Below are positions 14,081-61,498 of a stretch of DNA of 64,000 nt, piece by piece (position 1 is the first letter of the stretch; each line of letters starts with the position of its first letter). The stretch spans positions 77,998,001 to 78,062,000 of the forward strand of contig NC_086108.1 in assembly GCF_963921235.1 (NCBI RefSeq). Reading direction: 5' to 3'. This DNA comes from Mobula hypostoma (Eukaryota). The notes beneath the pieces are model-generated. The model was not told the origin of the DNA, made no database searches, and was given only the letters and a program-made list of their open reading frames with translations. The position numbers were made by a program, and so were the translations under genes.

Positions 14081-17000
14081 TATAGAACCATAGAACATTA
14101 CAGCACAGAAACAGGTCTTTTGGCCCTTCTTGGCTGTGACAAACCATTTTTCTGCCTAGTCCCACTGAGCTGCACCTGGACCATATCCCTCCATACACCT
14201 CTCATCCATGTACCTGTCCAAGTTTTTCTTAAGTGTTAAAAGTGAGCCCGCATTTACCACTTCATCTGGCAGCTCATTCCACAATCCCACCACTCTCTGT
14301 GTGAAGAAGCCCCCCGCTAATGTTCCCTTTAAAGTTTTCCCCCTTCATCCTTAACGCATGTCCTCTGGTTTTTTGCTTCCTTAGCCTCAGTGAAAAAAGC
14401 CTGCTTGCATTCACTCTATCTATACCCATCATTATTTTATATACCTCTATCAAATCTCCCCCATTCTTCTACGCTCCAGGGAATAAAGTCCTAACCTATT
14501 CAACCTTTCTCTGTAACTCAGTTTCTCAAGTCCCGGCAACATCCTTGTAAACCTTCTCTGCACTCTTTCAACCTCATTAATATCCTTCCTGTAATTTGGT
14601 GACCAAAACTGCACACAATATTCCATATTCGGCCTCACCAATGCCTTATACAACCTCACTATAACATTCCAACTCATATACTCAGTACTTTGATTTATAA
14701 AGGCCAATGTACCAAAAGCTTTGAAAACCTTCCTCACTGTCCACTACACCTCCAATCTTTATATCATCAGCAAATTTGCTGATCCAATTTACCACATTAT
14801 CATCCAGATCATTGATATAGATGGCAAATAACAATGGACCCAGCACTGATCCCTGTTGCACACCACTAATTACAGGCCTCCACTCAGAGAAGCAATCCTT
14901 CACTACCACTCTTTGGCTTCTTCCATTGAGCCAATGTCTAATCCAATTTACTACCTCTCCATGTATACCTAGTGACTGAATCTTCTTAACTAACCTCCCA
15001 TGCGGGACCTTGTCAAAGGCCTTACTGAAGTCCATGTAGACATCCACTGCCTTCTCTTCATCCACTTTCCCGGTAACCTCCTTGAAAAACTCTAATAGAT
15101 TGGTTAAACATAACCTACCATGCACAAAGCCATGTTGACTCTCTCTAATACCTATAGGTGCAGGAGGAGAAGATGGCAACGAGCCTGCGCGTGCGCAGCC
15201 CTCTGGTAAAAAATGATATCATACCTGTTAAATAGGGGCCATGGACAATTCTGATTTGATGGAGAATGGACGTGAAAGCACAGAGGAACATCTGGAGAAA
15301 TTTCTGAAACGCCCATTCGCTGCTGTCATTACTGCGTGGTTGGGAATCTTTCAGAGGGTAGGCCTCAAAATCCCCGGCCTTGTCTGTTTTTGGTGACCGA
15401 GAAGGAGGTCGAATTGTTCGGACAGAGATGGCACTCAGTACTCGGTGTCGGAGAGCTGATCAGAGCTCGAAGTTTTCAGATGACTCAGAGTCGGACCGTG
15501 GTCGGGTATGGCAGGGAGAGTTTTTCTTCCTTCTCCCGTCTGGGACATTTGAGAAACTTTGAACTTTACTGTGCTCACGGACTTCTTCATCAAGTTATAG
15601 TATTGTTACACTGTTTGTAACTATATGTTATAATTATGTGGTTTTGTCAGTTTTTTCAGTCTTGGTTTGTCCTGTGTTTTGTGATATCACACCGGAGGAA
15701 ATAATGTATCATTTCTTAATGCATGCATTACTAAATGACAATAAAAGAGGACTACGTGTCTTTATAATCATAATAAGTCTCTGTCTATCCAAATACTTGT
15801 AGACCCTATCTCTTAGTACTCCTTCCAACAATTTACCTATGACCGACGTCAAATTTACCAGCCTATAATTTGCTGGATTACTTTTAGAGCCTTTTTCAAA
15901 CAGCGGAACAACATGAGCTATCCTCCAATCCTCTAGCACCTCACCCGTAGATACTGACATTTCAAATATATCTGCCAGGGCCCCTGCAATTTCAACACTA
16001 GTCTCCATCAAGGTCTGAGGGAATACCCTGTCAGGTCCTGGGGAATTATCTACTCTGATTTGCCTCAAGGTAGCAAGCACCTCATCCTCTTCAATCTGTG
16101 TACGTTCCATGACTTTACTACTTGTTTGCCTTATTTTCATAGACTCCATGCCAATTTCCTTAGTAAATACAGATGCAAAATCCCACTTAAGATCTCCCCC
16201 ATTTCTTTTGGTTCCATACACAGCTGACCACTCTGATCTTCAAGAAGACCAAATTTATCCCTTACTATCCTTTTGCTCTTAATATACCTGTAGAAGCTCT
16301 TTGGATTATCCTTCACCTTGACTGCCAAAGCAACCTCATGTCTTCTTTTAGCCCTCCTGATTTCTTTCTTAAGTTTTTTTTGCACTTTTTATACTCCTCA
16401 ACATCTTATTTGCTCCGTTTCCTATACATGTCATACCTCTCTTTCTTCTTCTTTATCAGAGTTCCAATATTCCTTGAGAACCAAGGTTCCTCATTGTTAT
16501 TCACTTTGCCTTTAATCCTGACAGGAACATACAAACTCTGCACTCCCAAAATTTCTCCTTTGAAGGCCTCCCACTTAGCAATCACATCCTTGCCAGAGAA
16601 CAACCTGTCCCAACCTACGCTTTTTAGATCCTTTCTCATTTCTTCAAATTTGGCCTTTTTCCAGTTTAGAACCTCAACCCGAGGACCTGATCTATCTTTA
16701 TCCATGATCAGGTTGAAACTAATGATGCTATGATTACTGGAACCAAAGCGTTCCCCTACACACACTTCTGTCACCTGTCCTAACTCGCTTCCTAATAGGA
16801 GATCTAATATTGCATCCTCTCTAGTTGGTACCTCTATATATTGATTTAGAAAACTTTCCTGAACACATTTTACAAACTTTAACCCATCTAGACCTTTAAC
16901 GGTATGGGAGTCCCAATCAATATGTGAAAAATTAAAATCCCTTATCACAACTTTATGTTTCCTGCAGTTGTCTGCTATCTCCTGCAGATTTGCTCCTCCA

Positions 17001-22455: not shown

Positions 22456-23042
22456 AGACAATAGACAATAGGTGCAGGAGTAGGTCATTTGCCCCTTCGA
22501 GCCAGCACCGCCATTCACTGTGATCATGGCTGATCATCCACAATCAGTATCCAGTTCCTGCCTTATCCCCATAATCTTTGATTCCACTATCTTTAAGCGC
22601 CCTATCCATCTCTTTTTTGAAAACATCCAGAGACTTGGCCTCCACAGCCTTCTGGGGCAGAGCATTCCATATATCCACCACTCTCTGGGTGAAAAAGTTT
22701 TTCCTCAACTCCGTTCTAAATGGCCTACTCCTAATTCTTAAACTGTGGCCTCTGGTTCTGGACTCACCCATCAGTGGGAACATGCTTCTTGCCTGCAGTG
22801 TGTCCAATCCTTTAATAATCTTATATGTTTCAATAAGATCCCCTCTCAGCCTTCTAAATTCCAGAGTATACAAGCCCAGTCGCTCCAATCTTTCGAAATA
22901 TGACAGTCCCGCCATCCCGGGAATTAACCTTGTGAACCTACACTGCACTCCCTCAATAGCAAGAATGTCCTTCCTCAAATTTGGAGACCAAAACTGCACA
23001 CAGTACTCCAGTTGTGGTCTTACCAGGGCCCTGTACAACTGC
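22456..23042 (-). mobile_element. Young 5'-truncated CR1 (ORF2 C-terminus and 3' UTR)
   Basis: 164-aa ORF YRALVRPQLEYCVQFWSP...; (AGACAAT)n tail; AGCTTT direct repeats at 22450-55 and 23043-48. Confidence 0.9.
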
Positions 23043-26390: not shown

Positions 26391-27648
26391 TTGGTATTTT
26401 TTGAGGATGTAACTATGAAAATGGACAAGGGAGAGCCAGTGGATATAATGTACCTGGACTTTCTGAAAGCCTTTGATAAAGTCCCAAATAGGAGATTAGT
26501 GGGCAAAATTAGGGCACATGGTATTGGGGGCAGAGTACTGACATGGATTGAAAATTGGCTGGCTGACAGAAAACAAAGAGTAGCGATTAACGGGTCCCTT
26601 TCGCAATGGCAGGCAGTGACCAGTGGGGTACCACAGAGTTCAGTGCTGGGACCGCAGCTGTTCACAATATATATTAATGATTTAGATGAGGGAATTAAAA
26701 GTAACATTAGCAAATTTGCCAATGACACAAAGCTGGGTGGCAGTGTGAAATGTGAGGAGGATGTTATGAGAATGCACGGTGACTTGGACAGGCTGGGTGA
26801 GTGGGCAGATGCAAGGCAGATGCAGTTTAATGTGGATAAATATGAGGTTATCCACTTTGGTGGTAAGAATGGGAAGGCAGATTATTATCTAAATGGAGTC
26901 AAGTTAGGAAAAGGGGAAGTACAACGAGATCTAGGTGTTCTTGTACATCAGTCACTGAAAGCAAGCATGCAAGTACAGCAGGCTGTGAAGAAAGCTAATG
27001 GCATGTTGGCCTTCATAACATGGGAAATTGAGTATAAGAGCAAAGAGGTCCTTCTGCAGCTGTACAGGGCCCTGATGAGACCACACCTGGAGTACTGTAT
27101 GCAGTTTTGGTCTCCAAATTTGAGGAAGGACATTCTTGCTATTGAGGGAGTGCAGCGTAGGTTCACATGGTTAATTCCCGGGATGGCGGGACTGTCATAT
27201 GTCGAAAGGTTGGAGCGACTGGGCTTGTATACTCTGGAATTTAGAAGGCTGAGAGGGGATCTTATTGAAACATATAAGATTATTAAGGGATTGGACACGC
27301 TGGAGGCAGGAAGCATGTTTCCGCTGATGGGTGAGTCCAGAACCAGAGGCCACAGTTTTAAGAATAAGGGGTAGGCCATTTAGAACGGAGTTGAGGAAAA
27401 ACTTTTTCACCCAGAGAGTGGTGGATGTATGAAATGTTCTGCCCCAGAAGGCTGTGGAGGCCAAGTCTCTGGATGCTTTCAAGAAAGAGATGCATAGAGC
27501 TCTTAAAGATAGCAGAATCAAAGGTTATGGGGGATAAAGCAGGAACTGGATACTGATTGTAGATGATCAGCCATAATCCCAGTGAATGGCGGTGATGGCT
27601 CGAAAGGCCGAATGGCCTACTCCTGCACCTATTGTCTATTGTCTATTG
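26391..27648 (+). mobile_element. Young 5'-truncated CR1 with 327-aa RT ORF
   Basis: YLDFLKAFDKVP, GVPQSSVLGP, FAND (catalytic D to N), YRALMRPHLEY; (CTATTGT)n tail; same subfamily as 22456-23042. Confidence 0.92.
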
Positions 27649-29020: not shown

Positions 29021-29580
29021 CATAGTCATAGTCATAGTCATACTTTATTGATCGCGGGGGAAATTGGTTTTCGTTACAGTTGCACCATAAATAATAAATA
29101 GTAATAAAACCATAAATAGTTAAATAGTAATATGTAAATTATGCCAGGGAATAAGTCCAGGACCAGCCTATTGGCTCAGGGTGTCTGACCCTCCAAGGGA
29201 GGAGTTGTAAAGTTTGATGGCCACAGGCAGGAATGACTTCCTATGATGCTCTGTGTTGCATCTCGGTGGAATGAGTCTCTGGCTGAATGTACTCCTGTGC
29301 CCAACCAGTCCATTATGTAGTGGATGGGAGACATTGTCCAAGATGGCATGCAACTTAGACAGCATCCTCTTTTCAGACACCACCGTGAGAGAGTCCAGTT
29401 CCATCCCCACAACATCACTGGCCTTACGAATGAGTTTGTTGATTCTTTTGGTGTCTGCTACCCTCAGCCTGCTGCCGCAGCACACAACAGCAAACATGAT
29501 AGCACTGGCCACCACAGACTTGTAGAACATCCTCAGCATCGTCCGGCAGATGTTAAAGGACCTCAGTTTCCTCAGGAAAT
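29021..29580 (-). mobile_element. Young Rex1/Babar-type LINE 3' fragment
   Basis: 138-aa ORF YFLRKLRSFNIC...RKSFLPVAIKLYN; (CATAGT)n tail; near-identical to the reverse of 63357-63640. Confidence 0.85.
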
Positions 29581-30243
29581 ACATTCACTTACAAAGCAGA
29601 ATTTTAAGACCCATACTGTGCATTTCTAATAGCCATTGAAAAGGTGGGGATGGACACTTCCTTAATCATCTGCAGTACGTTTGGTGAAGGTGCTCCCAGG
29701 GAGGTGTTGATAAAGGGATTTGCACCCAATGTTGAGTGTGTGACACTGTTTTTTACACATGCTGACTTTCACCACCTGCTTCATTTGTTCTTCAGTGTGG
29801 TAGAGGCTGTGAATTTGAAAACTGTTGAAGCTCGGGAAGTTGTTCCACTTTATAGATGATACATATCGTAGCTGTGGCGTGCTAGTGATGAGCAGAATGA
29901 ATATGCAGGGCTGTGTACCAAGTACAACTTGAGCAGGTTGTTTCAACTTGTTTGGTGACAAGATTCTCAAATGTTACGGGTGCAATAGTTATCCGGGCAA
30001 GTTGACAGTATTCCATTGCACTCTTGATAAGCTCTGGGATTGAGTTTATATATAAAAAAAGTAGTTTTCTAGAGTCAGGAACTGAGTTCTTACTATGGAT
30101 TATCCATTCCATCACATGCTTTGCAGCCACAGTACTTGTGTAGCTGGTCATTCAGTCACTCAACAACCATGGCACAGAAGGTCATTCAGCCCATCACATC
30201 CAGAGTAGCTCTCTTCTAGAACACAAGTTTGGCCTCTTTCCCC

Positions 30244-31123
30244 TGTTACGAGAATACACATAAAATTAAGATGTTTGCTGGCCTGGGCTAGCATCAGTGG
30301 CATCAGCAGTTGGTCTGCCACCTGCCCTCAGGGGAAGGAGAGATAAGGAACAATGGAGCAGCGTCTGGAGATGTGTAATGAAGGGATGTGGGAGGAAGAG
30401 CTGTCTGGAGCGGCTCCCCCCTTTGAACCCTGAACTGTTTGAAGTGATGGACAGGCGATACCCCAGCAGGGGGATAAAAAGGGACAGGTTCGCTAAGACA
30501 GACACACACGCCACCCGAGGTAACGAGACCCTGGAAGCGGTGCGCTTCTCACGAGTGGGTGAGAAGTCCCAGACAACGACAAGGGTGGAAAGGTACGATC
30601 AGCGGGAACCCGGTGTGTGTCCGCCCTTGCCTGGGTGCCGGGTTCACTGCAGAGGATCGACCGCATCTGGAGGAGGGGTCACAGTCGGTGACCTCAGGTG
30701 ACATCACCAAGGACCCGCCCAAAAGCTGTTTGTGAGCCATCTCGCTGGTCTGTGAGCCATCTTGCTGGTCTGTGAGTGAAGCCGTTCTGAATGATGAGTT
30801 GTTCCTATTCTATCTCTCTCTTCCCCCACGTTGTCCACCGCCATGGCAACGATTACTGCGAACTGAACTACTAAACTGGACTGAACTTTGAGTCATTTTG
30901 AAATTGGTCATTTACCCCTAGACAACGATAGAGCTTGATTGATGCTGTTATCTTAATTCTGTGCACATGTGTGTTTATCATCACTGAACTGTTGCATTTA
31001 TTATCCTTTCGATTACTGTGTTGCTTGTTTCTTTAATAAAACTTTCTTAGTTCTAGTACTCCAGACTCCAACTGAGTGATCCATTTCTGCTGGTTTGGCA
31101 ACCCAGTTACGGGGTACGTAACA
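30244..31123 (+). repeat. 5' LTR
   Basis: TGTTACG...CGTAACA terminal inverted repeat; AATAAA near 31035. Confidence 0.95.
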
Positions 31124-31127
31124 TAAG

Positions 31128-31153
31128 TGGGGTTCTCGTCCGCGATTTTGAAC
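31128..31153 (+). promoter_or_regulatory. Primer-binding site resembling the tRNA-Pro complement
   Basis: TGGGGTTCTCGTCCGCGATTTTGAAC versus the tRNA-Pro complement TGGGGGCTCGTCCGGGATTTGAAC; 4 nt after the LTR. Confidence 0.75.
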
Positions 31154-31222: not shown

Positions 31223-34117
31223 ATGGAGGTTGAGGAATTTATAAAGGCGCCGACCTTGGAGGCATTAGAGGATGCCAGGAAATCGGAATTGATAGCTGTG
31301 GCCAAACGGGTGAATCTTGCTAAGGTGAAGTCGACAATGAGGAGAGAGGAGATACACAGAGCTATTGTAGAGCACTATGTATCTAAAGGTGTGTTTCCCC
31401 AAGGTGAGCTGGGGGTGGTGTCTATTGAAAAACCTGCTGGAGACGCGGTACAGGTACAGCTTGAAAAACTGAGACTCGAGCACGAGTTCCGGGTACGGCA
31501 GTTAGAACACGAAGAGAAGCAGTTAGAAAGGCAGGAGAAAGAGAGAGAGTTAGAAAGGCGGGAGAAAGAGAGAGAGTTAGAAAGGCGGGAGAAAGAGAAA
31601 GAGGTAGAAAGGCAAGAGAGAGAAAGACAGTTGGAGAGAGAAGAGAGAGAGAGGGACAGACAGTTGGAGAGAGAGGAGAAACAGAGGGAAAGGGAATTTG
31701 AGCTGGAAAAGTTAAGGATAAGGGCCGAGCAGGGGCTCGTGCCGAACCAAGGTGGAGGGTTCCGGGCGACCCAGGAGGTTAGGCTGGTTCCCCCATTTGA
31801 CGATACCGATGTGGATCGGTACTTTCTCCATTTCGAAAAAGTGGCCATAAGTCAGGAATGGCCGAGGGATAAGTGGGTTGTCTTGCTTCAGAGTGTACTG
31901 AAAGGGAAAGCCCAACAAGCTTACTCCGCTTTATCCCCGGAAGATGCCCAGAAGTATGAGGTGGTGAAGGAGGCCATCCTCAGGACTTATGAGTTGGTCC
32001 CGGAGGCATACCGGCAGAGGTTCCGGAATGCGAGGAAGCGGTGGGACCGCACGTATTTGGAGTTTGCTCGCGAGATGCAAACATATTGTGAGCGTTGGTG
32101 CGCCTCGAAAGGGGTAGAGGGGGATTATGACAGACTGCTGCAACTGGTTCTGATTGAGCAGTTTAAAGGTTGTGTCCCTGAGGGTATGAGACCCTACCTC
32201 GATGAGAAAGAGGCAGCCACGTTAGCCGCAACTGCTAAGTTAGCGGATGAGTATGCGTTGACGCATAAAATGAAGGTTGCCCCGAGTAAAGGCTACCAGA
32301 AGGGTAGTCAGGACGGCGGGGAGAGTCCACCGGAAAAGTCAGAAAGTAAGCCGGGGACTAGTGAAAAGGATAAGGTAGACCGGGAGCAGTCTGGTAGGAA
32401 GTCTCCTGGAGTCGTCTGTTATAATTGTGGGAAAGTCGGACACTTTGCGTCCAGGTGCTTTGCCCCAAGGAAGGAGACGGGGAAAGGAAAAGCGGAAATT
32501 TTGAATGGCTGTATTGAGCTGTTAAGCGAACCGCTAGGGAAGGACAGGTCTGAAAAAGTCCAGGAAGGGCGCGAGAGGTTTATCTCGGCCGGACTGGTGT
32601 CAGTGAAAAAGAGGTTAAAACCAGTTCCAGTGCGGATCTGGAGAGACACGGGAGCGTGTCAGTCACTAATACTGAAGAGTGTATTAGAGTTTAGCTCAGA
32701 GACCCAGACTGGGGAGGTAGAGGTCAAAGGTGTTGGGGAAGGGACAGAGTCAGTCCCTTTGCACCAGATACATTTACAGAGCAACCTGGTCTCTGGACTA
32801 GTCACGATTGGGGTGAGGTCCGAATTACCGATGAAAGACGTGGAAGTCTTGCTCGGTAATGACATCGCCGGAGGAATCGTGTTCCCAGTCGTGAGATTGA
32901 CGGGTCAGCCTGCCAGCATGGAGGCCCCGCCCGCGATGGTGAATTTGGCTGAAACATTTCTGCCAACCTTGTATGAGACAGGGTGTAGTGAGATAAGAGG
33001 TAGTGAGGGAGCTGGGACGGACGTAGCAGTAGCCAGGAAAGAATTTGTGCAGACGCAGGAGCGAGACGAGGGGCTGATGGTTTTTGCCGAGACCGCTCTC
33101 TCTGACACAGCCTTGACAAGCTATTGTGCGGATGAGGAAGTGCTAAGGAAGAAAGGGAAATCAAGTACAGTATCCGCAGATGAGGAGTGGGGGGTGGTGC
33201 AAAAGAGTTATGGGGATGAGGTTTTTAACATGGCCCACGAGGTACCCCCCGGTGGACATTTTGCGGTGCTGGAGGAAACAGTTGGTGGAATCATGAAAGA
33301 GATTTACCGGCTGCCCAGGGGGAAGAATGTTATTGATCATGACCGACGCGAACTGAGACGGTCACCGGCTTTTGATATGCTAACAAACCTAGTCGGTATT
33401 AGCGTGGAAATCAATGAAGCTAGGGGCCCCTTGATAAGAGGAAAAAACCATTTTGAAAAGATTAGGATGGGATCGGTCAGATGGGAGAAGGCTATTGTTT
33501 TGGCCAGGTCTACTGATAAGGTCTCTCCCTTAATCCCCGAAGGAGTAATTAAACGACTCGCACCCATGTGTTTGATTGTCCCGAGGAAATGCAAAGAACT
33601 GGGACGTTGGGTTATGTCTGTTACAATAGGGCAGCCAAGTAAACAACACCCATATTTTTTGAGTAATTCAGTGACTAAAGGGCTGATGAACACAGAGGTG
33701 TGTATTGGCAATTTAACACGGCTGTCTGAAGCCAGCTTGATAGTGAACCTTGGAAAAAATGAATTCGGCCACACGAATGTCACTTACCTGGGAATTGTGG
33801 TGACACAGGGGCAGCTGGCAGTGATGCAAGCTACAGTGCAGGCTATCGCTGACCTCCCAACCCCGACAGACAAGAGGGCCCTCAGAAGGCTTTTGGAGAT
33901 GGTGGGGTACTGCAGGAAGTTTTGCAATAACTCTGCGGTCAATACCCGTCCCCCTCCTACTAAGCCCTTGCGAGAGAAAATTGAGTCGGAATGGGACGAC
34001 CCTTGTTATTGTGGTCCGGGACAAAACCAAATGAGAGGTTACATTGGTCGCAATTCATCAGTGTTTTTGGCCACTATGAAGTTTGCTGAGTTGGAGCCTG
34101 GTCTAAGGGATTATTAA
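31223..34117 (+). CDS. 964-aa Gag-protease polyprotein with in-frame integrase and RT remnants
   Basis: E/R coiled coil; SCAN-like capsid (ILRTYELVPEAYRQRFR...EQF); zinc knuckle CYNCGKVGHFASRC (32417-32458); protease DTGA (32645) and LLGND; IN zinc-finger half AHEVPPGGH; RT pieces KQHPY, VTYLG and LRRLLEMVGYCRKF. No YxDD, DDE or RNase H seen. Confidence 0.9.
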   Translation: MEVEEFIKAPTLEALEDARKSELIAVAKRVNLAKVKSTMRREEIHRAIVEHYVSKGVFPQGELGVVSIEKPAGDAVQVQLEKLRLEHEFRVRQLEHEEKQLERQEKERELERREKERELERREKEKEVERQERERQLEREERERDRQLEREEKQREREFELEKLRIRAEQGLVPNQGGGFRATQEVRLVPPFDDTDVDRYFLHFEKVAISQEWPRDKWVVLLQSVLKGKAQQAYSALSPEDAQKYEVVKEAILRTYELVPEAYRQRFRNARKRWDRTYLEFAREMQTYCERWCASKGVEGDYDRLLQLVLIEQFKGCVPEGMRPYLDEKEAATLAATAKLADEYALTHKMKVAPSKGYQKGSQDGGESPPEKSESKPGTSEKDKVDREQSGRKSPGVVCYNCGKVGHFASRCFAPRKETGKGKAEILNGCIELLSEPLGKDRSEKVQEGRERFISAGLVSVKKRLKPVPVRIWRDTGACQSLILKSVLEFSSETQTGEVEVKGVGEGTESVPLHQIHLQSNLVSGLVTIGVRSELPMKDVEVLLGNDIAGGIVFPVVRLTGQPASMEAPPAMVNLAETFLPTLYETGCSEIRGSEGAGTDVAVARKEFVQTQERDEGLMVFAETALSDTALTSYCADEEVLRKKGKSSTVSADEEWGVVQKSYGDEVFNMAHEVPPGGHFAVLEETVGGIMKEIYRLPRGKNVIDHDRRELRRSPAFDMLTNLVGISVEINEARGPLIRGKNHFEKIRMGSVRWEKAIVLARSTDKVSPLIPEGVIKRLAPMCLIVPRKCKELGRWVMSVTIGQPSKQHPYFLSNSVTKGLMNTEVCIGNLTRLSEASLIVNLGKNEFGHTNVTYLGIVVTQGQLAVMQATVQAIADLPTPTDKRALRRLLEMVGYCRKFCNNSAVNTRPPPTKPLREKIESEWDDPCYCGPGQNQMRGYIGRNSSVFLATMKFAELEPGLRDY

Positions 34118-34277
34118 TAACACGTGTAAAAGGAACAGAAAATGTGATGACTGTCTGTCAAGGTGTTGACAGCTTCAAATTCTCTGTATTAGCTAAATAA
34201 CTGTTAAAGATGTATATTGTGTATGTATCAGATAATGTAGTCATGTTTGTAATTTTTACCTCCCGGTAAAAATCCTT

Positions 34278-34289
34278 AAAGGGGGGAAG
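34278..34289 (+). promoter_or_regulatory. Polypurine tract
   Basis: AAAGGGGGGAAG directly before the 3' LTR. Confidence 0.9.
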
Positions 34290-35169
34290 TGTTACGAGAA
34301 TACACATAAAATTAAGATGTTTGCTGGCCTGGGCTAGCATCAGTGGCATCAGCAGTTGGTCTGCCACCTGCCCTCAGGGGAAGGAGAGATAAGGAACAAT
34401 GGAGCAGCGTCTGGAGATGTGTAATGAAGGGATGTGGGAGGAAGAGCTGTCTGGAGCGGCTCCCCCCTTTGAACCCTGAACTGTTTGAAGTGATGGACAG
34501 GCGATACCCCAGCAGGGGGATAAAAAGGGACAGGTTCGCTAAGACAGACACACACGCCACCCGAGGTAACGAGACCCTGGAAGCGGTGCGCTTCTCACGA
34601 GTGGGTGAGAAGTCCCAGACAACGACAAGGGTGGAAAGGTACGATCAGCGGGAACCCGGTGTGTGTCCGCCCTTGCCTGGGTGCCGGGTTCACTGCAGAG
34701 GATCGACCGCATCTGGAGGAGGGGTCACAGTCGGTGACCTCAGGTGACATCACCAAGGACCCGCCCAAAAGCTGTTTGTGAGCCATCTCGCTGGTCTGTG
34801 AGCCATCTTGCTGGTCTGTGAGTGAAGCCGTTCTGAATGATGAGTTGTTCCTATTCTATCTCTCTCTTCCCCCACGTTGTCCACCGCCATGGCAACGATT
34901 ACTGCGAACTGAACTACTAAACTGGACTGAACTTTGAGTCATTTTGAAATTGGTCATTTACCCCTAGACAACGATAGAGCTTGATTGATGCTGTTATCTT
35001 AATTCTGTGCACATGTGTGTTTATCATCACTGAACTGTTGCATTTATTATCCTTTCGATTACTGTGTTGCTTGTTTCTTTAATAAAACTTTCTTAGTTCT
35101 AGTACTCCAGACTCCAACTGAGTGATCCATTTCTGCTGGTTTGGCAACCCAGTTACGGGGTACGTAACA
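34290..35169 (+). repeat. 3' LTR
   Basis: Direct repeat of 30244-31123; the ORF-track translations inside both LTRs are identical. Confidence 0.95.
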
Positions 35170-35573
35170 CCCCAGACACAGTTTTTCCCGTTATTATTTA
35201 ATTCCCTCTTTAATCCACAATGGAACTTGCTTCATCACATCTGCAGGATGTACATTCTAGATTCCAACCAGGTGCTGTGACAAAGTCTGTCTTCATCTCA
35301 CTGTTGATTCTCTTCTCTATTATCTTATAGCTGTGACTTTTATTCCTTGACCTCTCTACCAAGCAGACAGCTTCCCGTTACTTTATACTCTCAGCATTTT
35401 ATGTTGTACTATCACATCTCCCCTCAGCTTTCTTTTCAAGTTGGGGTTGTTTAAAGCAAAAGAGCGTAAGTTTAAAATGAGTTTTAAAGAGAATTTGATA
35501 AGAAAAGAGCTTTTATTTGCAGAGTAGTTGGTATCTGGAACCCATTTCCAGAGGAGGTAGTGGAATTGGAAAC

Positions 35574-36576
35574 TGTTACAAGGAGGCGTTGGGAGCGGAC
35601 CTAAGTGCAGGACATAGGCACAGAGGTAGTATAAACAGAATTTATTGATCAATAAACAGTGTTTATTGATAGTTACTAGGAAGGCCAGGGAGCGAGGACA
35701 AAATGTCAACATGGACGTAAACGTTGGATAACCAACCGGTAAAACCTGGACTTGACCTGGACTCGGACTTGACCTGGACTTGGACTTGGACTTGGATCTT
35801 GACTCAGACTCGGAACTTGACTCGGACTCGGAACTTGACTCGGACTCAGAACTTGGATCTTGACTCAGACCCTAGAAATGGAACACGGAGCCTGGAACAG
35901 GAACACGGCTTGGGGCCTGGAACAGGAACACGGCTTGGAGCCTGGAACTGGACACAACTTGGAGCCTGGACTTGGACACAGACCTCGAGCCTGGACACGG
36001 ACATGGACCATGAGCCTGGACTTTGACACGGACCACAAGCCTGGACTTGAAGGACTTGGACAACGAGGAGACAAACTACCCAACTCAGAGTGTAGCGGCA
36101 AACAGCTGGATCTACTCAGCTGGAAGGACTTGGACATCAGGCTCTCGACTTGACCCAGAAACAGCGGACGACAGGCTCTCGACATGACCAAGGAACAGCG
36201 AACAACAGGCTCTCAACTCGACCCAGGCTCAGCCGGCCATGAAAACAACAGAATTTGTACCTTACTTGGAGTCGTGGCAAAATGGCCGGCAACTCAGCTG
36301 GACACAAAAACGACTGAATTCACTAAGCGGCCATGGCACTGAAGCAACTGGAATCCACGATTCTCGGCAGCCCTGAGACGAGCAGAGCCACCTTGCTGAG
36401 ATGACTGACTTCCGGTGACGAACTTCTGATGACGGTCCTGCACTGAGTAGCTGTAACCCAGAGCCTTTGATGCTGCCGGTTCGAAATGAAGATCAGGTGC
36501 CTTAATCAAGCCGCCCAATGGAACACGGGGAAAAGGAAATAACCGAAGTGAGGAGTCCACCGACCGGACCATGACA
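35574..36576 (-). mobile_element. Solo-LTR-like element (about 1 kb) with internal tandem arrays and 6-bp TSD
   Basis: TGTTACA...TGACA termini; GGAAAC at 35568-73 and 36577-82; interrupts an old CR1 3' end; orientation tentative. Confidence 0.7.
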
Positions 36577-43076: not shown

Positions 43077-43956
43077 TGTTACGAGAATACACATAAAATT
43101 AAGATGTTTGCTGGCCTGGGCTAGCATCAGTGGCATCAGCAGTTGGTCTGCCACCTGCCCTCAGGGGAAGGAGAGATAAGGAACAATGGAGCAGCGTCTG
43201 GAGATGTGTAATGAAGGGATGTGGGAGGGAGAGCTGTCTGGAGCGGCTCCCCCCTTTGAACCCTGAACTGTTTGAAGTGATGGACAGGCGATACCCCAGC
43301 AGGGGGATAAAAAGGGACAGGTTCGCTAAGACAGAGACACACGCCACCCGAGGTAACGAGACCCTGGAAGCGGTGCGCCTCTCACGAGTGGGTGAGAAGT
43401 GCCAGACAACGACAAGGGTGGAAAGGTACGATCAGCGGGAACCCGGTGTGTGTCCGCCCTTGCCTGGGTGCCGGGTTCACTGCAGAGGATCGACCGCATC
43501 TGGAGGAGGGGTCACAGTCGGTGACCTCAGGTGACATCACCAAGGACCCGCCCAAAAGCTGTTGTGAGCCATCTCGCTGGTCTGTGAGCCATCTTGCTGG
43601 TCTGTGAGTGAAGCAGTGTTCTGAATGATCAGTTGTTCCTATTCTATCTCTCTCTTCCCCCACGTTGTCCACCGCCATGGCAACGATTACTGCGAACTGA
43701 ACTACTAACTGGACTGAACTTTGAGTCATTTTGAAATTGGTCATTTACCCCTAGACAACGATAGAGCTTGATTGATGCTGTTATCTTAATGCTGTGCACA
43801 TGTGTGTTTATCATCACTGAACTGTTGCATTTATTATCCTTTCGATTACTGTGTTGCTTGTTTCTTTAATAAAACTTTCTTAGTTCTAGTACTCCAGACT
43901 CCAACTGAGTGATCCATTTCTGCTGGTTTGGCAACCCAGTTACGGGGTACGTAACA
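43077..43956 (+). mobile_element. Solo LTR of the Gmr1-like family
   Basis: 880-bp TG...CA copy with about 9-10 differences from the paired LTRs; own TSD ACAT (43073-76, 43957-60); no PBS or PPT. Confidence 0.95.
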
Positions 43957-56709: not shown

Positions 56710-57850
56710 GACACAATAGCCACAGCTCTACACAGTGTCCTTACACACCCGGAGAGGAGGGATGCCTTTGTGAGAATGCAGTTCTTGGACTACAGTTCAG
56801 CATTCAACACCATAACTCCCTCCAGGCTCAACAAGAAGCTCAGAGACCTCGGCCTTCACCCTGCCTTGTGCAGCTGGATCCTGGACTTCCTGTCAAGTCG
56901 CTGGCAGGTGGTAAGAGTGGGCTCCCTCACCTCTGCCCCTCTGACCCTTAAGATGGGTGCCCCTCAGGGCTGTGTACTAAGCCCCTTCCTTTACTCTCTG
57001 TATACCCATGACTGTGTCACCACCCACAGCTCCAATCTGCTAGTAAATTTGCTGACCATACTACATTTATTGGCCTAATCTCAAATAATAATGAGGCAGC
57101 CTACAAAGAAGTCATCACCCTGACACAGTGGTGTCAGGAAAACAACCTATCCTTCAATGTTGCAAAAACAAAGGAACTGGTTGTGGACCACAGGAGGAAT
57201 GGAGACAGGCTAACCCCTATTGACATCAATGGATCTGGGGCTGAAAGGGTGAACAGCTTTAAGTTCCTTAGCATAAACATCACTGAGGATCTCACATGCT
57301 CTGTACATACTGGCTGTGTAGTGAAAAAAGCACAACAGCGCTTCTTTCATCTCAGACGTTGAAGAAGTTTGGTTTGGGCCTCCAAATCCTAAGAACTTTC
57401 TATAGGGGTACAATTGAGAGCATCCTGACTGGCTGCATCACTGCCTGGTATGGGAACTGTACTTCCCTCAATCACAGGACTCTGCAGAGAGTGGTGCAGA
57501 CAGCCCACTATTCAGGATATTTACAAAGACAGGTATGTAAAAAGGGTCTGAGGGATCACTGGGGATCCGAGTCACCTCAACCACAAACTGTTCCAGCTGT
57601 TACCATCGGGGAAAACTTACCGCAGCATAAAGCCAGGACCAACAGGCTCCAGGACAGTTTCTTCCACCAGGCCATCAGACTGCTTAATTCATGCTGACAC
57701 AACTGTATTTTTATGTTATATTGACTATCCAGTTGTACATAATATTTATTATAAATTGCACATGTAGACGGAGTCGTAATGTAAAGATTTTTACTCCTCC
57801 TGTATATAAAGGATGTAAGTAATAAAGTCAATTCTATTCCATTCAATTCA
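56710..57850 (+). mobile_element. Rex1/Babar-type LINE RT-to-3' fragment
   Basis: FLDYSSAFNTI, GAPQGCVLSPFLYSLYTHDC, ESILTGCITAWYG, SFFHQAIRLLN; (ATTCA)n-like tail. Confidence 0.85.
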
Positions 57851-58330: not shown

Positions 58331-59860
58331 AATCAAGCCTATGCTGGGCAAGGAGAGGGAAGCAAGTACAAATATGAATGTTAGATTGGATGTGAAGGGT
58401 GGTGTGGAGAAAATGTTTTGAATAACTTGTATATCTGATCTGTTGATTTTTTTTTTATTCTGGCGACTTCCAGTCTTGAAGAAGGATCTCAGCCCAAAAC
58501 GTCGACTACTCATTCGTTTTTATAGATGCTGCCTGATCTGAGTTCCTCTAGCATTTTGTGTGTGTTCCTCTGGATTTCCAACAACGGCACACTTCCTCAT
58601 TTTATATTTTTGATCTATATATATAGAAGACTCAGTATAAGTAATAGAATCTTGTTTACAATTATTTATTTTATTTGTAGACCCTTTATAATTGCTTGAT
58701 GCCTGTTTAATTATGCCCTTGTTTTTGACTTTGTTTTGGTTTTGATGTTGCATTTAGCAGATAATAGATAATAGATAAGGGGAAACCAGAAGTGTACTTG
58801 TAGTCTCAAGCCATCAGTAAGGTTATTGAGCAACATTAAAACACATAAGGATTAATAGTACTAGTCAGCATGGATGTGGTTCATGCATTGAAAACTGAGG
58901 ATCAGAATACATGTCATTTTGGGTTTGGGAGGCAGTGGTGAGTAGGGTGCAGCAAGAAACAGTGCCAGGATTAGAGCTAATCATCATCTGTATGAGTAAT
59001 CTCACAGCCATTACAGTGTCCGGATTTCTAGGATAGTAAACTTGTAGAAGAGATGGAAAATCCTGATTTTAAAAAAATGGGATAAAGGTAGTATAGAGAA
59101 AAAATACATATCTTAGCTGTGAAAATCAGAGTTTGATTGAAGCGAAGAAAAAGCCAGGGGCTGAAAACACTAATTGCCCCCCAAACAGTTCTGGTAAAGT
59201 AGGCCAGGGTATAATTTAAGATGTCAGTGTGCACATGACTAGGATGGTACAATAACCAGAGGGGGTCTTCATTCCACGTATAGATGAAGCAAACTAAATT
59301 GGCAATTATAGTGTGAATGAATCATGTATGGAAGAAATGAATTTTTACATCAGTACTTTTGAGTGGCATTAGATGAAATGGTAATAGAAGCCAAGAGCAA
59401 TGAATTAATCCAAACTTTCTTGTAGCATTTAAACAGTTGAGTTGATTTCTCATTTCTTCCTGTCTAACTTTTTTAAAAAATCTATTAAATATCTCATTAA
59501 ATTTAATCATTTGAAGCTTTTCATTACCATTTACAAAGACCAGAATATAAATGTGAGGAGATCCAAGCCTCCGCAGTCAATTCAAAGTTTAACCTGTAGA
59601 CTCATTCAAAGATCTCTCCTCCATCTCACACCCTGTCAAACATATTCAACTTCAGCTTAAAAGTTATCAGCCGGCTTCAAAATAAAGATGTGGCAATCAA
59701 TACAAATTGTGTGAGGGTTTTTCTAATGTTCTACATTGTGATGGACCATTGCTAATGACAACAACAAATTATTTGGGACAGGTCACACACACAATTCAGC
59801 GCCAGGAAGCAATCGGCATCATGGAATGTAGGAACAGTTGACGTCTCTCCGCTCCGCCAC

Positions 59861-61498
59861 TCAGTACTTGGGTCTCTTCACCTCGACACCATCTGCCTCT
59901 TAACTCCTTTCTCTTTTCAATGATCGCACTGATCTTCTTCCACTGCCGATCCAGTTCTGCCTTCTCATTTGTTGCCTTGAAACGTCGTGTTTTACGTCCC
60001 TCTGACACCTTGATGCCGTATTGGAAAGCAGCTTTGGGCAAAGCCTCTTTGTTGTTCATGTATTCACTGTATTCCTCCTGTGTATCAAAATTCCAGTGGC
60101 CAAGGGGTCCCTTCTTGTTACCCTGATCCATCTTACTGTAATCCACCTCTTCATCGCTGTCAACAGCCATATCCTCCAGCGTGGCTGGATAACATTCTGC
60201 ATAGCTGTCTGACGTTCCGAAAAAAACTCCAAGCCACTTCTTCTCTTCCTGTCTCTTTGCCGATTCTGCTCCCTGCCAGTCTCCAGCTCCAGCAAACTTC
60301 TCATTGATCGACTTAATCAGATCCTTTGTCAGCCCAGGACCAGCATCCATCTCCACTGGTTCATCATCCACTCTTGGCTTTTCAAAGTAATTGTGCCTGG
60401 AATTTTTCTCTTCGTCTCTCTCTCTTTCCCTCTCCCGCTCCCGCTCTTGTTCCCTTTCTCGCTCTCTCTCCCACTCCTGCTCCCTTTCTCTCTCCTTCTC
60501 CCGGTACTTTTCACGCTCCTTCTCACGAACAACCTTCGCGGTTGTTGGCACATAGTCACTGGTGTCATCGAAGATGCCTCTTTTCATCACCTCCCAATTT
60601 ACCTTTATCTTTCTTCTTCATTTTCTTGTTACGAGTTCCTTGGCGCAAGTAGGACAAGATCTGAGTCAGTTTATTGATAACAATGTCATTGGTGGTCAAC
60701 GTTGTTTGTGCTTTCTTGGTAGGGCAGTCGGCTTTGCTTCTGATTAGCATTGTGGGTACATCCATGTCTGCATATTCATCATCTAAGTCCACAACATATG
60801 CCATGCGTCTGGTAAAAACAGCTCATTTCGCTCTTGGGGCTTCATTTTAAACAGAATACGGTATATGTTGTGTCCCAAGCGGGTCTTGAATTCAGTTTTA
60901 TTTTCTGGATCTTCATCTTTCTTCACTTCTTTCTGTACTTTCTCAATCATATCTTCTTCTTCTGTCTCTTTGCTGGTGATTTCTGCTCGGACCTTCTGCA
61001 GGAGAGCAATATCCAGCCCCTTCACCAAGTGAGTGTGCTCCATGTCACCACCCAAGAACTTGGACTCCTGGATGAGCTGCCGCCTCTTCTCTGCTGCAAA
61101 CTTGTCCGCCTCAGCAGTTGGTCCAACGGCTCTGTAGTTTGCTGCTGTACTGATGAGCTCAGTTTCCTCATAGTCTTTGTTCACGCCATCTTGTCTCTCC
61201 CGTGCTCGATCACAGTACTTCCCAGCCAGCTCGCGCTCGCATTCCAGCTCCTGCTGCCGCAGTTTCGCGTAGTAACTTTTCTTCTTCCTCCCCCGGGCAG
61301 CAGGATCGTCCTGTTCGTTGTATTCCCTCGGCATCTCACGTTGGCGAGTTTTTGAAGGTGGAGCCGATGATGGCATTGACCTTGGGTTTGGAAGTCCTCA
61401 TTGGTTAGCTTTGATTGATTCAGTGACCGAGGATCTTCCATCTCGTGTGAATCAGGCGCCAGAGGGTTTGAAAACGGCTCATTGTCTCTCTCCGGCAT
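59861..61498 (-). pseudogene. IK: Processed pseudogene of IK (spliceosomal protein Red)
   Basis: Intronless; MPERDNEPFSNPLAPD...SKLTNEDF, KFLGGDMEHTHLVKGLD, RE/RD repeat, YAECYP, KAAFQYGIK, ending VKRPKY-stop. About four frameshifts or deletions near 61385, 60805, 60590 and 59900. Confidence 0.95.

Follow-up and report, generated by a model that had tools for sequence, protein, structure and literature searches.

Gmr1-like Ty3/gypsy elements are described as having a SCAN-type capsid, the domain order PR-IN-RT-RH and one fused ORF (10.1101/2025.03.03.638093, PMC11117352). Among non-autonomous elements, mouse IAP 1-delta-1 is internally deleted and carries a single fused gag-pol ORF; it is reported to out-transpose its helper, and its fusion ORF is described as mattering in cis (PMC6466679, PMC7411935). 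In those accounts a single 1.9-kb deletion takes part of gag, and Gag is needed in trans. Plant TR-GAGs are also non-autonomous LTR elements that retain Gag; as described, they are shorter than 4 kb and were chosen for showing no similarity to PR, IN, RT or RH (PMC4350172). Further two-component parasite-helper systems are BARE-2, described as lacking Gag, and ETn/MusD, of which ETn is described as lacking coding capacity. In soybean, autonomous and non-autonomous LTR partners reportedly refresh their shared cis regions by recombination, as proposed by Du et al. in 2010.

The element that we analyzed lies in a window of 64,000 nt (the whole stretch of DNA under analysis) and differs from each of these systems. 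Having no pol catalytic core, it is a derivative of the Gmr1-like type. It differs from IAP 1-delta-1 in its whole, constrained Gag and PR and in a tail that is open across several species, from TR-GAGs in its vertebrate host and in retaining PR along with a long, translated wreck of pol, and from BARE-2 and ETn in having Gag and coding capacity. Compared with the swapping in soybean, exchange with its partner runs through gag and ends before the protease. Our literature searches, which left most subscription papers and Repbase outside reach, returned no description of this family nor, for any vertebrate gypsy element, of long-term selection on a meaningless open frame combined with LTR-gag exchange. 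The kind of element is already known; the long-term open-frame selection with LTR-gag exchange appears, within those searches, to be new.

Anatomy and classification of the element

The element is 4.9 kb long. Its LTRs (30244-31123 and 34290-35169) match at 880 of 880 positions, have the ends TG..CA and are flanked by CCCC on both sides, and because they are identical the insertion is young. The features are as follows.

30240..30243, + strand: left target-site duplication CCCC, read from the sequence
30244..31123, + strand: 5' LTR, 880 bp, TATA-like site at 30473; LTR swapped with the autonomous partner (AU p=0.005)
31124..31145, + strand: primer-binding-site region, the same as the partner's over 35 nt
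31223..34117, + strand: single ORF of 964 codons encoding Gag, PR and a dead pol tail, from the ORF list
31490..31710, + strand: Glu/Arg-rich repeat within Gag, differing in length among copies
31745..32287, + strand: capsid with SCAN-like domain (aa 260-349), under purifying selection and common to the partner
32417..32458, + strand: CCHC zinc knuckle, intact
32573..32932, + strand: aspartic protease, DTG at 32645-32653; family-specific, under purifying selection
32933..33349, + strand: PR-IN linker and integrase N-terminal remnant (two His kept, Cys lost)
33337..33384, + strand: integrase-core deletion junction (~300 codons gone); the 31-mer here has 1,250 genome matches
33385..33659, + strand: IN-RT linker and RT N-terminal remnant, followed by the 128-codon RT deletion
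33660..34005, + strand: RT remnant, with YIDD changed to CIGN, an 18-codon deletion and a thumb remnant, followed by the 86-codon deletion
34006..34117, + strand: RNase H remnant, in frame up to 34077, then a frameshifted end
34148..34289, + strand: 3' untranslated segment, 99% identical to the partner's, with a polypurine tract (34278-34289) at its end
34290..35169, + strand: 3' LTR, AATAAA at 35081
35170..35173, + strand: right target-site duplication CCCC

The primer-binding-site region resembles what we take to be a tRNA-Pro site; ARAGORN found no tRNA in the 64-kb window. The Glu/Arg-rich repeat has a wide length spread among copies, mostly in multiples of three. To the right of the element lies a degenerate short-unit repeat region (window 35740-36240). 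Elsewhere, 59796-61376 on the minus strand holds ORFs of 263 and 197 aa that contain an RE repeat and are presumably an intronless, broken copy of splicing factor RED/IK, and RT-like fragments at 14682-16149, 22544-22915, 26415-27374, 29168-29584 and 56776-57697 are of a type that we assume to be typical of CR1/L2-type LINEs.

Pfam searches of the ORF returned SCAN (PF02023, aa 260-349, E=1e-12) and zf-CCHC (aa 398-412), with rve, RVT_1 and RNase H absent at E<=1 and no family at all in the tail. Alignment to an intact partner from the same genome showed what has been lost. In the integrase HHCC motif both His are retained and both Cys are lost, and none of the three DDE residues remains, all having been deleted. 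RT has lost its fingers/palm by deletion, and its YIDD now reads CIGN; RNase H has lost its first two acidic motifs in the same way. In total, deletions in the tail have cost integrase ~300 codons, RT 128 + 18 and RNase H 86, and small indels come on top of these; the linker and integrase N-terminal remnant at 32933..33349 carries several small in-frame deletions, some of them polymorphic. A conserved linker motif that follows the protease in the partner and in the related proteins P0007-P0010, P0013 and P0014 is also deleted. The RT thumb remnant (aa about 831-909) gave the sole pol match in a PDB search (Ty3 RT, E=1.6e-4) and is followed by an RNase H remnant of 24 aa (aa 929-952). The final 12 codons correspond to the end of RNase H, mostly out of the old frame, and the stop falls 52 nt before the partner's stop position. 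The other two plus-strand frames of the tail contain 29 and 32 stops.

Much of the sequence-only reading, made before any search, stands. It had described a stop-free ORF of 964 codons between identical LTRs, with capsid, CCHC knuckle and DTG protease intact (as supported by Pfam and the partner alignment) and an HHCC motif without its cysteines. It had also placed integrase upstream of RT, as in the Gmr1 lineage; the remnant order is indeed IN-RT-RH, the same as in the partner. That reading saw no DDE, YxDD or RNase H and took the tail for spliced IN and RT remnants. The catalytic cores are gone, profile search and partner alignment having found no intact RT or IN core, and the tail does consist of those remnants; the reading has to be amended for the RNase H-derived end, including the 24-aa remnant.

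Based on domain order and the SCAN-like capsid, the element is a Gmr1-derived non-autonomous LTR retrotransposon that probably works like IAP 1-delta-1. It has LTRs, a PBS, a PPT and a TSD, its deleted form has multiplied, and its partner shares the LTR, PBS and PPT. We considered and rejected four other assignments: an autonomous Gmr1-like element (HHCC, DDE, YxDD and RNase H are not intact), a domesticated Gag/SCAN host gene (the element is multi-copy with LTRs), a TR-GAG (PR is intact and constrained, and the length is 4.9 kb), and a member of the IAP type (it is gypsy-type with whole gag, not betaretrovirus-like with a partly deleted gag).

Copy number, autonomous partner and LTR-gag exchange

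An exact 31-mer over the integrase-deletion junction had 1,250 matches in the genome and a control 31-mer had none. An LTR 31-mer had 9,379 matches, of which ~6,900 exceed two per junction-bearing copy. A solo LTR of the same family (98.8% identity, own ACAT duplication) was also seen in the window at 43077-43956. Among matches ranked by similarity, all 40 scored DNA hits on the tail were full length, with 99-100% identity, and 94 of 99 scored protein matches were stop-free. To sample by position, 40 copies were taken from the first 100 junction places listed; 4-bp TSDs were present in 37 of the 39 that had both LTRs covered (L055, whose 5' LTR was uncovered, was excluded from LTR and TSD counts). 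The ORF reached its end in 5/11, 6/10, 2/9 and 0/9 copies with 0-1, 2-4, 5-9 and 10+ LTR mismatches, respectively, as expected if copies begin open and then decay. All 17 of the 3'-marker places without an exact junction match carried the same deleted structure (one was seen in part and one has a 780-nt insertion), and a tail-less form was found in none of these 17 extra copies. The shared deletion junctions that the sequence-only reading had suggested searching for thus mark a high-copy family, in which the stops of sister copies are not inherited.

Some individual copies were unusual. L097 has a 780-nt tail insertion and the full 63-nt linker, and L114 consists of two family LTRs 2.4 kb apart with unrelated sequence between them and flanks that do not match. 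L114 and L115 were dropped because their internal sequence could not be aligned, and L113 was only ORF-listed. Tandem elements that apparently share a middle LTR were observed at L046/L047 (G000:C80:24.47 Mb) and as pairs on C2 and C18, among both the partner and the deleted family.

Contigs from three other organisms span the same deletion junctions without gaps, and the deleted form therefore predates the splits from those organisms. In another organism, one low-depth contig join skips the tail. Near-identical proteins are recorded under Mobula hypostoma, which makes this devil ray the likely host; one copy of the ORF, P0001, is annotated as "metastasis-associated in colon cancer protein 1", probably because a gene model has taken in the element. 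In three runs that are RNA only by guess, coverage spans the element and drops to near zero in the flanks; these are strandless contigs without levels and were not counted as evidence, and no splice-like joint specific to the three runs was seen.

An autonomous partner was sought by querying the genome with the integrase core of a stingray relative (150 scored matches). The best matches had ORFs of 1535-1564 aa with the Pfam order SCAN, CCHC, H2C2, rve, RVT_1, RNase H, that is, IN before RT, and a PBS region identical to that of the window element. A helper with the same LTR and PBS, as the sequence-only reading had supposed, does exist in this genome. A marker for the young partner subfamily had nine genome matches, four of them with an unbroken ORF of 1535-1564 aa, and by exact markers the deleted family outnumbers the intact partner by about 140:1 (1,250 vs 9).

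Similarity between the two is sharply partitioned. Against one partner, the window element is 98-99% identical in the LTR, gag and 3' UTR, 90% in the protease and 75% in the tail, and its capsid is 98.8% identical to the partner's and 92.8-95.4% to those of older copies of its own family. In trees of 18-19 non-autonomous and seven young partner copies, capsid and LTR intermingle the families, with monophyly rejected (AU p=0.007 and 0.005, respectively), and protease and tail separate them, the tail with a stem of 0.25. The exchange of LTR-gag with the partner is continuing, and it stops before the protease. One chimera, L119 (G000:C1:42869200-42876000), has non-autonomous LTR-gag-PR fused to partner pol; the join is at a 10-nt microhomology, and the whole chimera went in as one insertion, flanked by a CAGT duplication. 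An established route to such mosaics is described to be recombination between RNAs packaged together (PMC6894440), and the RNAs of the deleted family and the partner are likely co-packaged, with template switching between them. This exchange was not anticipated by the sequence-only reading.

These comparisons bear on two other explanations. One is that the window holds merely a young copy with deletions and that chance alone has left its frame open, as its identical LTRs and young insertion would allow. It is refuted, and we give it next to no weight, as the tail differs by 25% from each partner subfamily and the junctions recur in 1,250 places and are bridged in three other organisms. The other is a bipartite element, in which the abundant family would be a Gag-PR-only message that gives the single-ORF partner an excess of Gag, a partly mutual relationship. 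The marker ratio of 1,250:9 agrees with this, as does the fused gag-pol described for Gmr elements (PMC11117352), and in the capsid tree young partner capsids are nested among non-autonomous ones, with older non-autonomous copies branching first. That tree, however, is weakly supported internally (11 of 25 branches are open), recombination alone yields a shared gag, the partner itself has an intact, conserved gag, and the open tail is left unexplained. We therefore regard a bipartite element as improbable.

Selection on the protein and on the open frame

Polymorphism was analyzed in 86 copies (30 chosen by similarity, including that of the window, 40 by position and 16 by 3' marker), with variants found in three or more copies set against singletons. 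For shared versus singleton variants, dN/dS was 0.17 vs 0.74 in the capsid (p=3e-4), and 0.31 vs 1.05 in the protease (p=0.014, rising to 0.052 once CpG sites are removed); for the tail it was 0.74 vs 0.92 (p=0.48). When three older-subfamily copies were compared with the young set, values were 0.12-0.20 for the capsid, 0.28-0.43 for PR and 1.09-1.45 for the tail. Among the 40 of 128 cross-species differences that were shown, N:S was 25:8 in the tail and 1:6 in the protease. On the family's own branch the protease dN/dS was 0.14-0.17, and that of the tail depended on the outgroup, being 0.54 (0.39-0.72) with L054 and 1.00 (0.64-1.96) with L053. Capsid and protease are under purifying selection, and the tail amino acids drift neutrally. 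The constraint on the capsid could come in from the partner; as the constrained protease is family-specific, the element probably uses its own protease. The sequence-only reading had proposed this comparison of gag, PR and tail, and had offered a dominant-negative decoy or a packaging domain as roles for the tail, neither of which is supported with the tail dN/dS at about 1.

Inherited changes are not spread evenly over the tail (dispersion p=0.005) and are fewest in the RT-thumb remnant, where positions 33824-33923 have four inherited changes against a mean of 13, with normal singleton counts. The inherited changes in this remnant include non-conservative ones, and the least variable stretch gave no signal of RNA structure (z=-0.37).

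The open frame itself is nevertheless kept. No stop has been fixed over 334 homologous codons, where 4.0-7.5 would be expected at 0.15-0.28 substitutions per site (P 4e-4 to 1.6e-2). Upstream of 34077 eight indels have been fixed, and each preserves the frame on balance (P=1.5e-4 at one-in-three odds), two of them via short compensated shifts, and all four between 34078 and 34147 shift the frame. With the Glu/Arg repeat excluded from indel counts, triplets made up seven of eight multi-copy indels in the tail versus 10 of 31 private indels in the ORF (p=0.013); the one non-triplet multi-copy indel lies within a run of A, and the two copies that carry it have no further rare allele in common. 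We rejected an inherited +1 near 34023 as a tolerated late frameshift, since it lies in an A-run and no other rare allele links its four carriers; three stops, each present in two copies, also look recurrent and not inherited. A substitution-only test gave no significant depletion of inherited stops (p=0.21; 0 among 78 shared and 8 among 232 singleton variants). The tail is still open after at least 15 indels and some 25% divergence. The best reading is that selection acts on translation through the tail, and so maintains the frame, and does not act on a tail product, and the earlier suggestion that selection keeps the frame open is upheld by the zero fixed stops and the in-frame upstream indels.

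Fifteen copies with 0-1 LTR mismatches carry 59 private changes, with two stops, which is above the LTR-based prediction. Broken RNAs may sometimes be mobilized, as young copies have private stops and only 5 of 11 have whole ORFs.

The order of events matters for a further explanation, that the open tail is a historical relic whose deletions arose in frame while downstream domains still worked, and which is now a mere RNA spacer. Divergence from the partner is lower in the RT remnant (dS 0.44) than in the IN remnants (0.61-0.74), which suggests stepwise loss. However, the older subfamily already has all of the large deletions, so that the catalytic cores had gone before the small in-frame deletions arose, and yet these later tail deletions of 12-27 nt are triplets. 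As short compensated shifts also bring the frame back, and no stop has been fixed over about 0.25 substitutions per site, we think a relic highly improbable.

Possible causes of the open tail

Our preferred explanation, to which we assign a probability of roughly 0.6, is that the family is a high-copy, young, non-autonomous Gmr1-like parasite whose tail frame is kept by a need for translation, likely to escape NMD. The parasite-helper part of this model, taken alone, is very probable; NMD as the agent that keeps the tail open is its least certain part. Mobilization in trans by partner enzymes is suggested by the absent enzymes together with young insertions. The element RNA would supply its own Gag-PR in cis, this would co-assemble with a little partner Gag-Pol, and the partner's integrase and RT/RNase H would copy and integrate the element. 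The tail sequence would be free and its translation required, such that an RNA translated almost to its 3' end would escape NMD and be packaged.

NMD is described as targeting long 3' UTRs unless a protective element is present (PMC5580461). Because gag and pol are fused in Gmr elements (PMC11117352), translation of their RNA would normally stop near the PPT, and with one fused ORF ending there it is plausible that protection against early stops never arose in them. Taking AATAAA at 35081 as the signal, the 3' UTR is 964 nt now (912 nt in the partner) and would be ~2150 nt if the stop followed the protease. NMD avoidance was among the options in the sequence-only reading, and it would fit a maintained frame with tail dN/dS of about 1.

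A second open-frame family was also found in this genome. The stingray proteins P0012-P0014 have a C-terminal, degenerate second capsid-protease copy, and a search with their tail identified a further, older Gmr1-derived family related to them (122 scored matches; copies L126-L129 and L131, on G000 C64, C45, C9, C58 and C40). Three of the 122, chosen for long frames and thus a biased sample, have 817-1065 open codons between LTRs. In these three the capsid N-domain, CCHC, DTG and DDE are all absent and RT is partly deleted, and pairwise dN/dS is 0.74-0.89, lower in the RT/RH third. The source element of this family must have stayed open through its decay.

The second family also bears on the possibility that the tail serves in cis as protein bulk, with its sequence mattering little, and aids co-assembly with helper Gag-Pol or protease dimerization. 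By analogy, the IAP 1-delta-1 Gag-Pol fusion, described as cis-acting (PMC6466679, PMC7411935), might point the same way. The deleted linker motif after PR, by which the tail may remain fused to PR, and the low variability of the RT-thumb remnant are also compatible with it. We nevertheless consider this unlikely, given that tail dN/dS is about 1, the tail continues to shorten, the thumb remnant has non-conservative inherited changes, and the second family holds its frame without intact Gag or PR motifs. Neither protein bulk nor NMD explains why the tail is slowly trimmed instead of removed.

Selection on an open frame can here be separated from selection on the protein, with the capsid, the protease, private versus inherited changes, and the last codons serving as controls. 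The pair is also a vertebrate parasite and helper that swap LTR-gag yet keep their protease-pol halves separate. In practice, such elements pass ORF-length filters as intact and get annotated as host genes. We suggest, tentatively and with more doubt than confidence, that single-ORF Gmr1 parasites must be translated to the end, and that rays hold several independent families whose junk frames of 800-1,000 codons would stay open through selection on translation alone. The commonest of these might be a Gag-protease segment that trades LTR-gag with a few Pol partners, in effect a two-segment vertebrate retrotransposon. The existing copies make it testable whether the RNAs of LTR elements must be fully translated for their stability and packaging.
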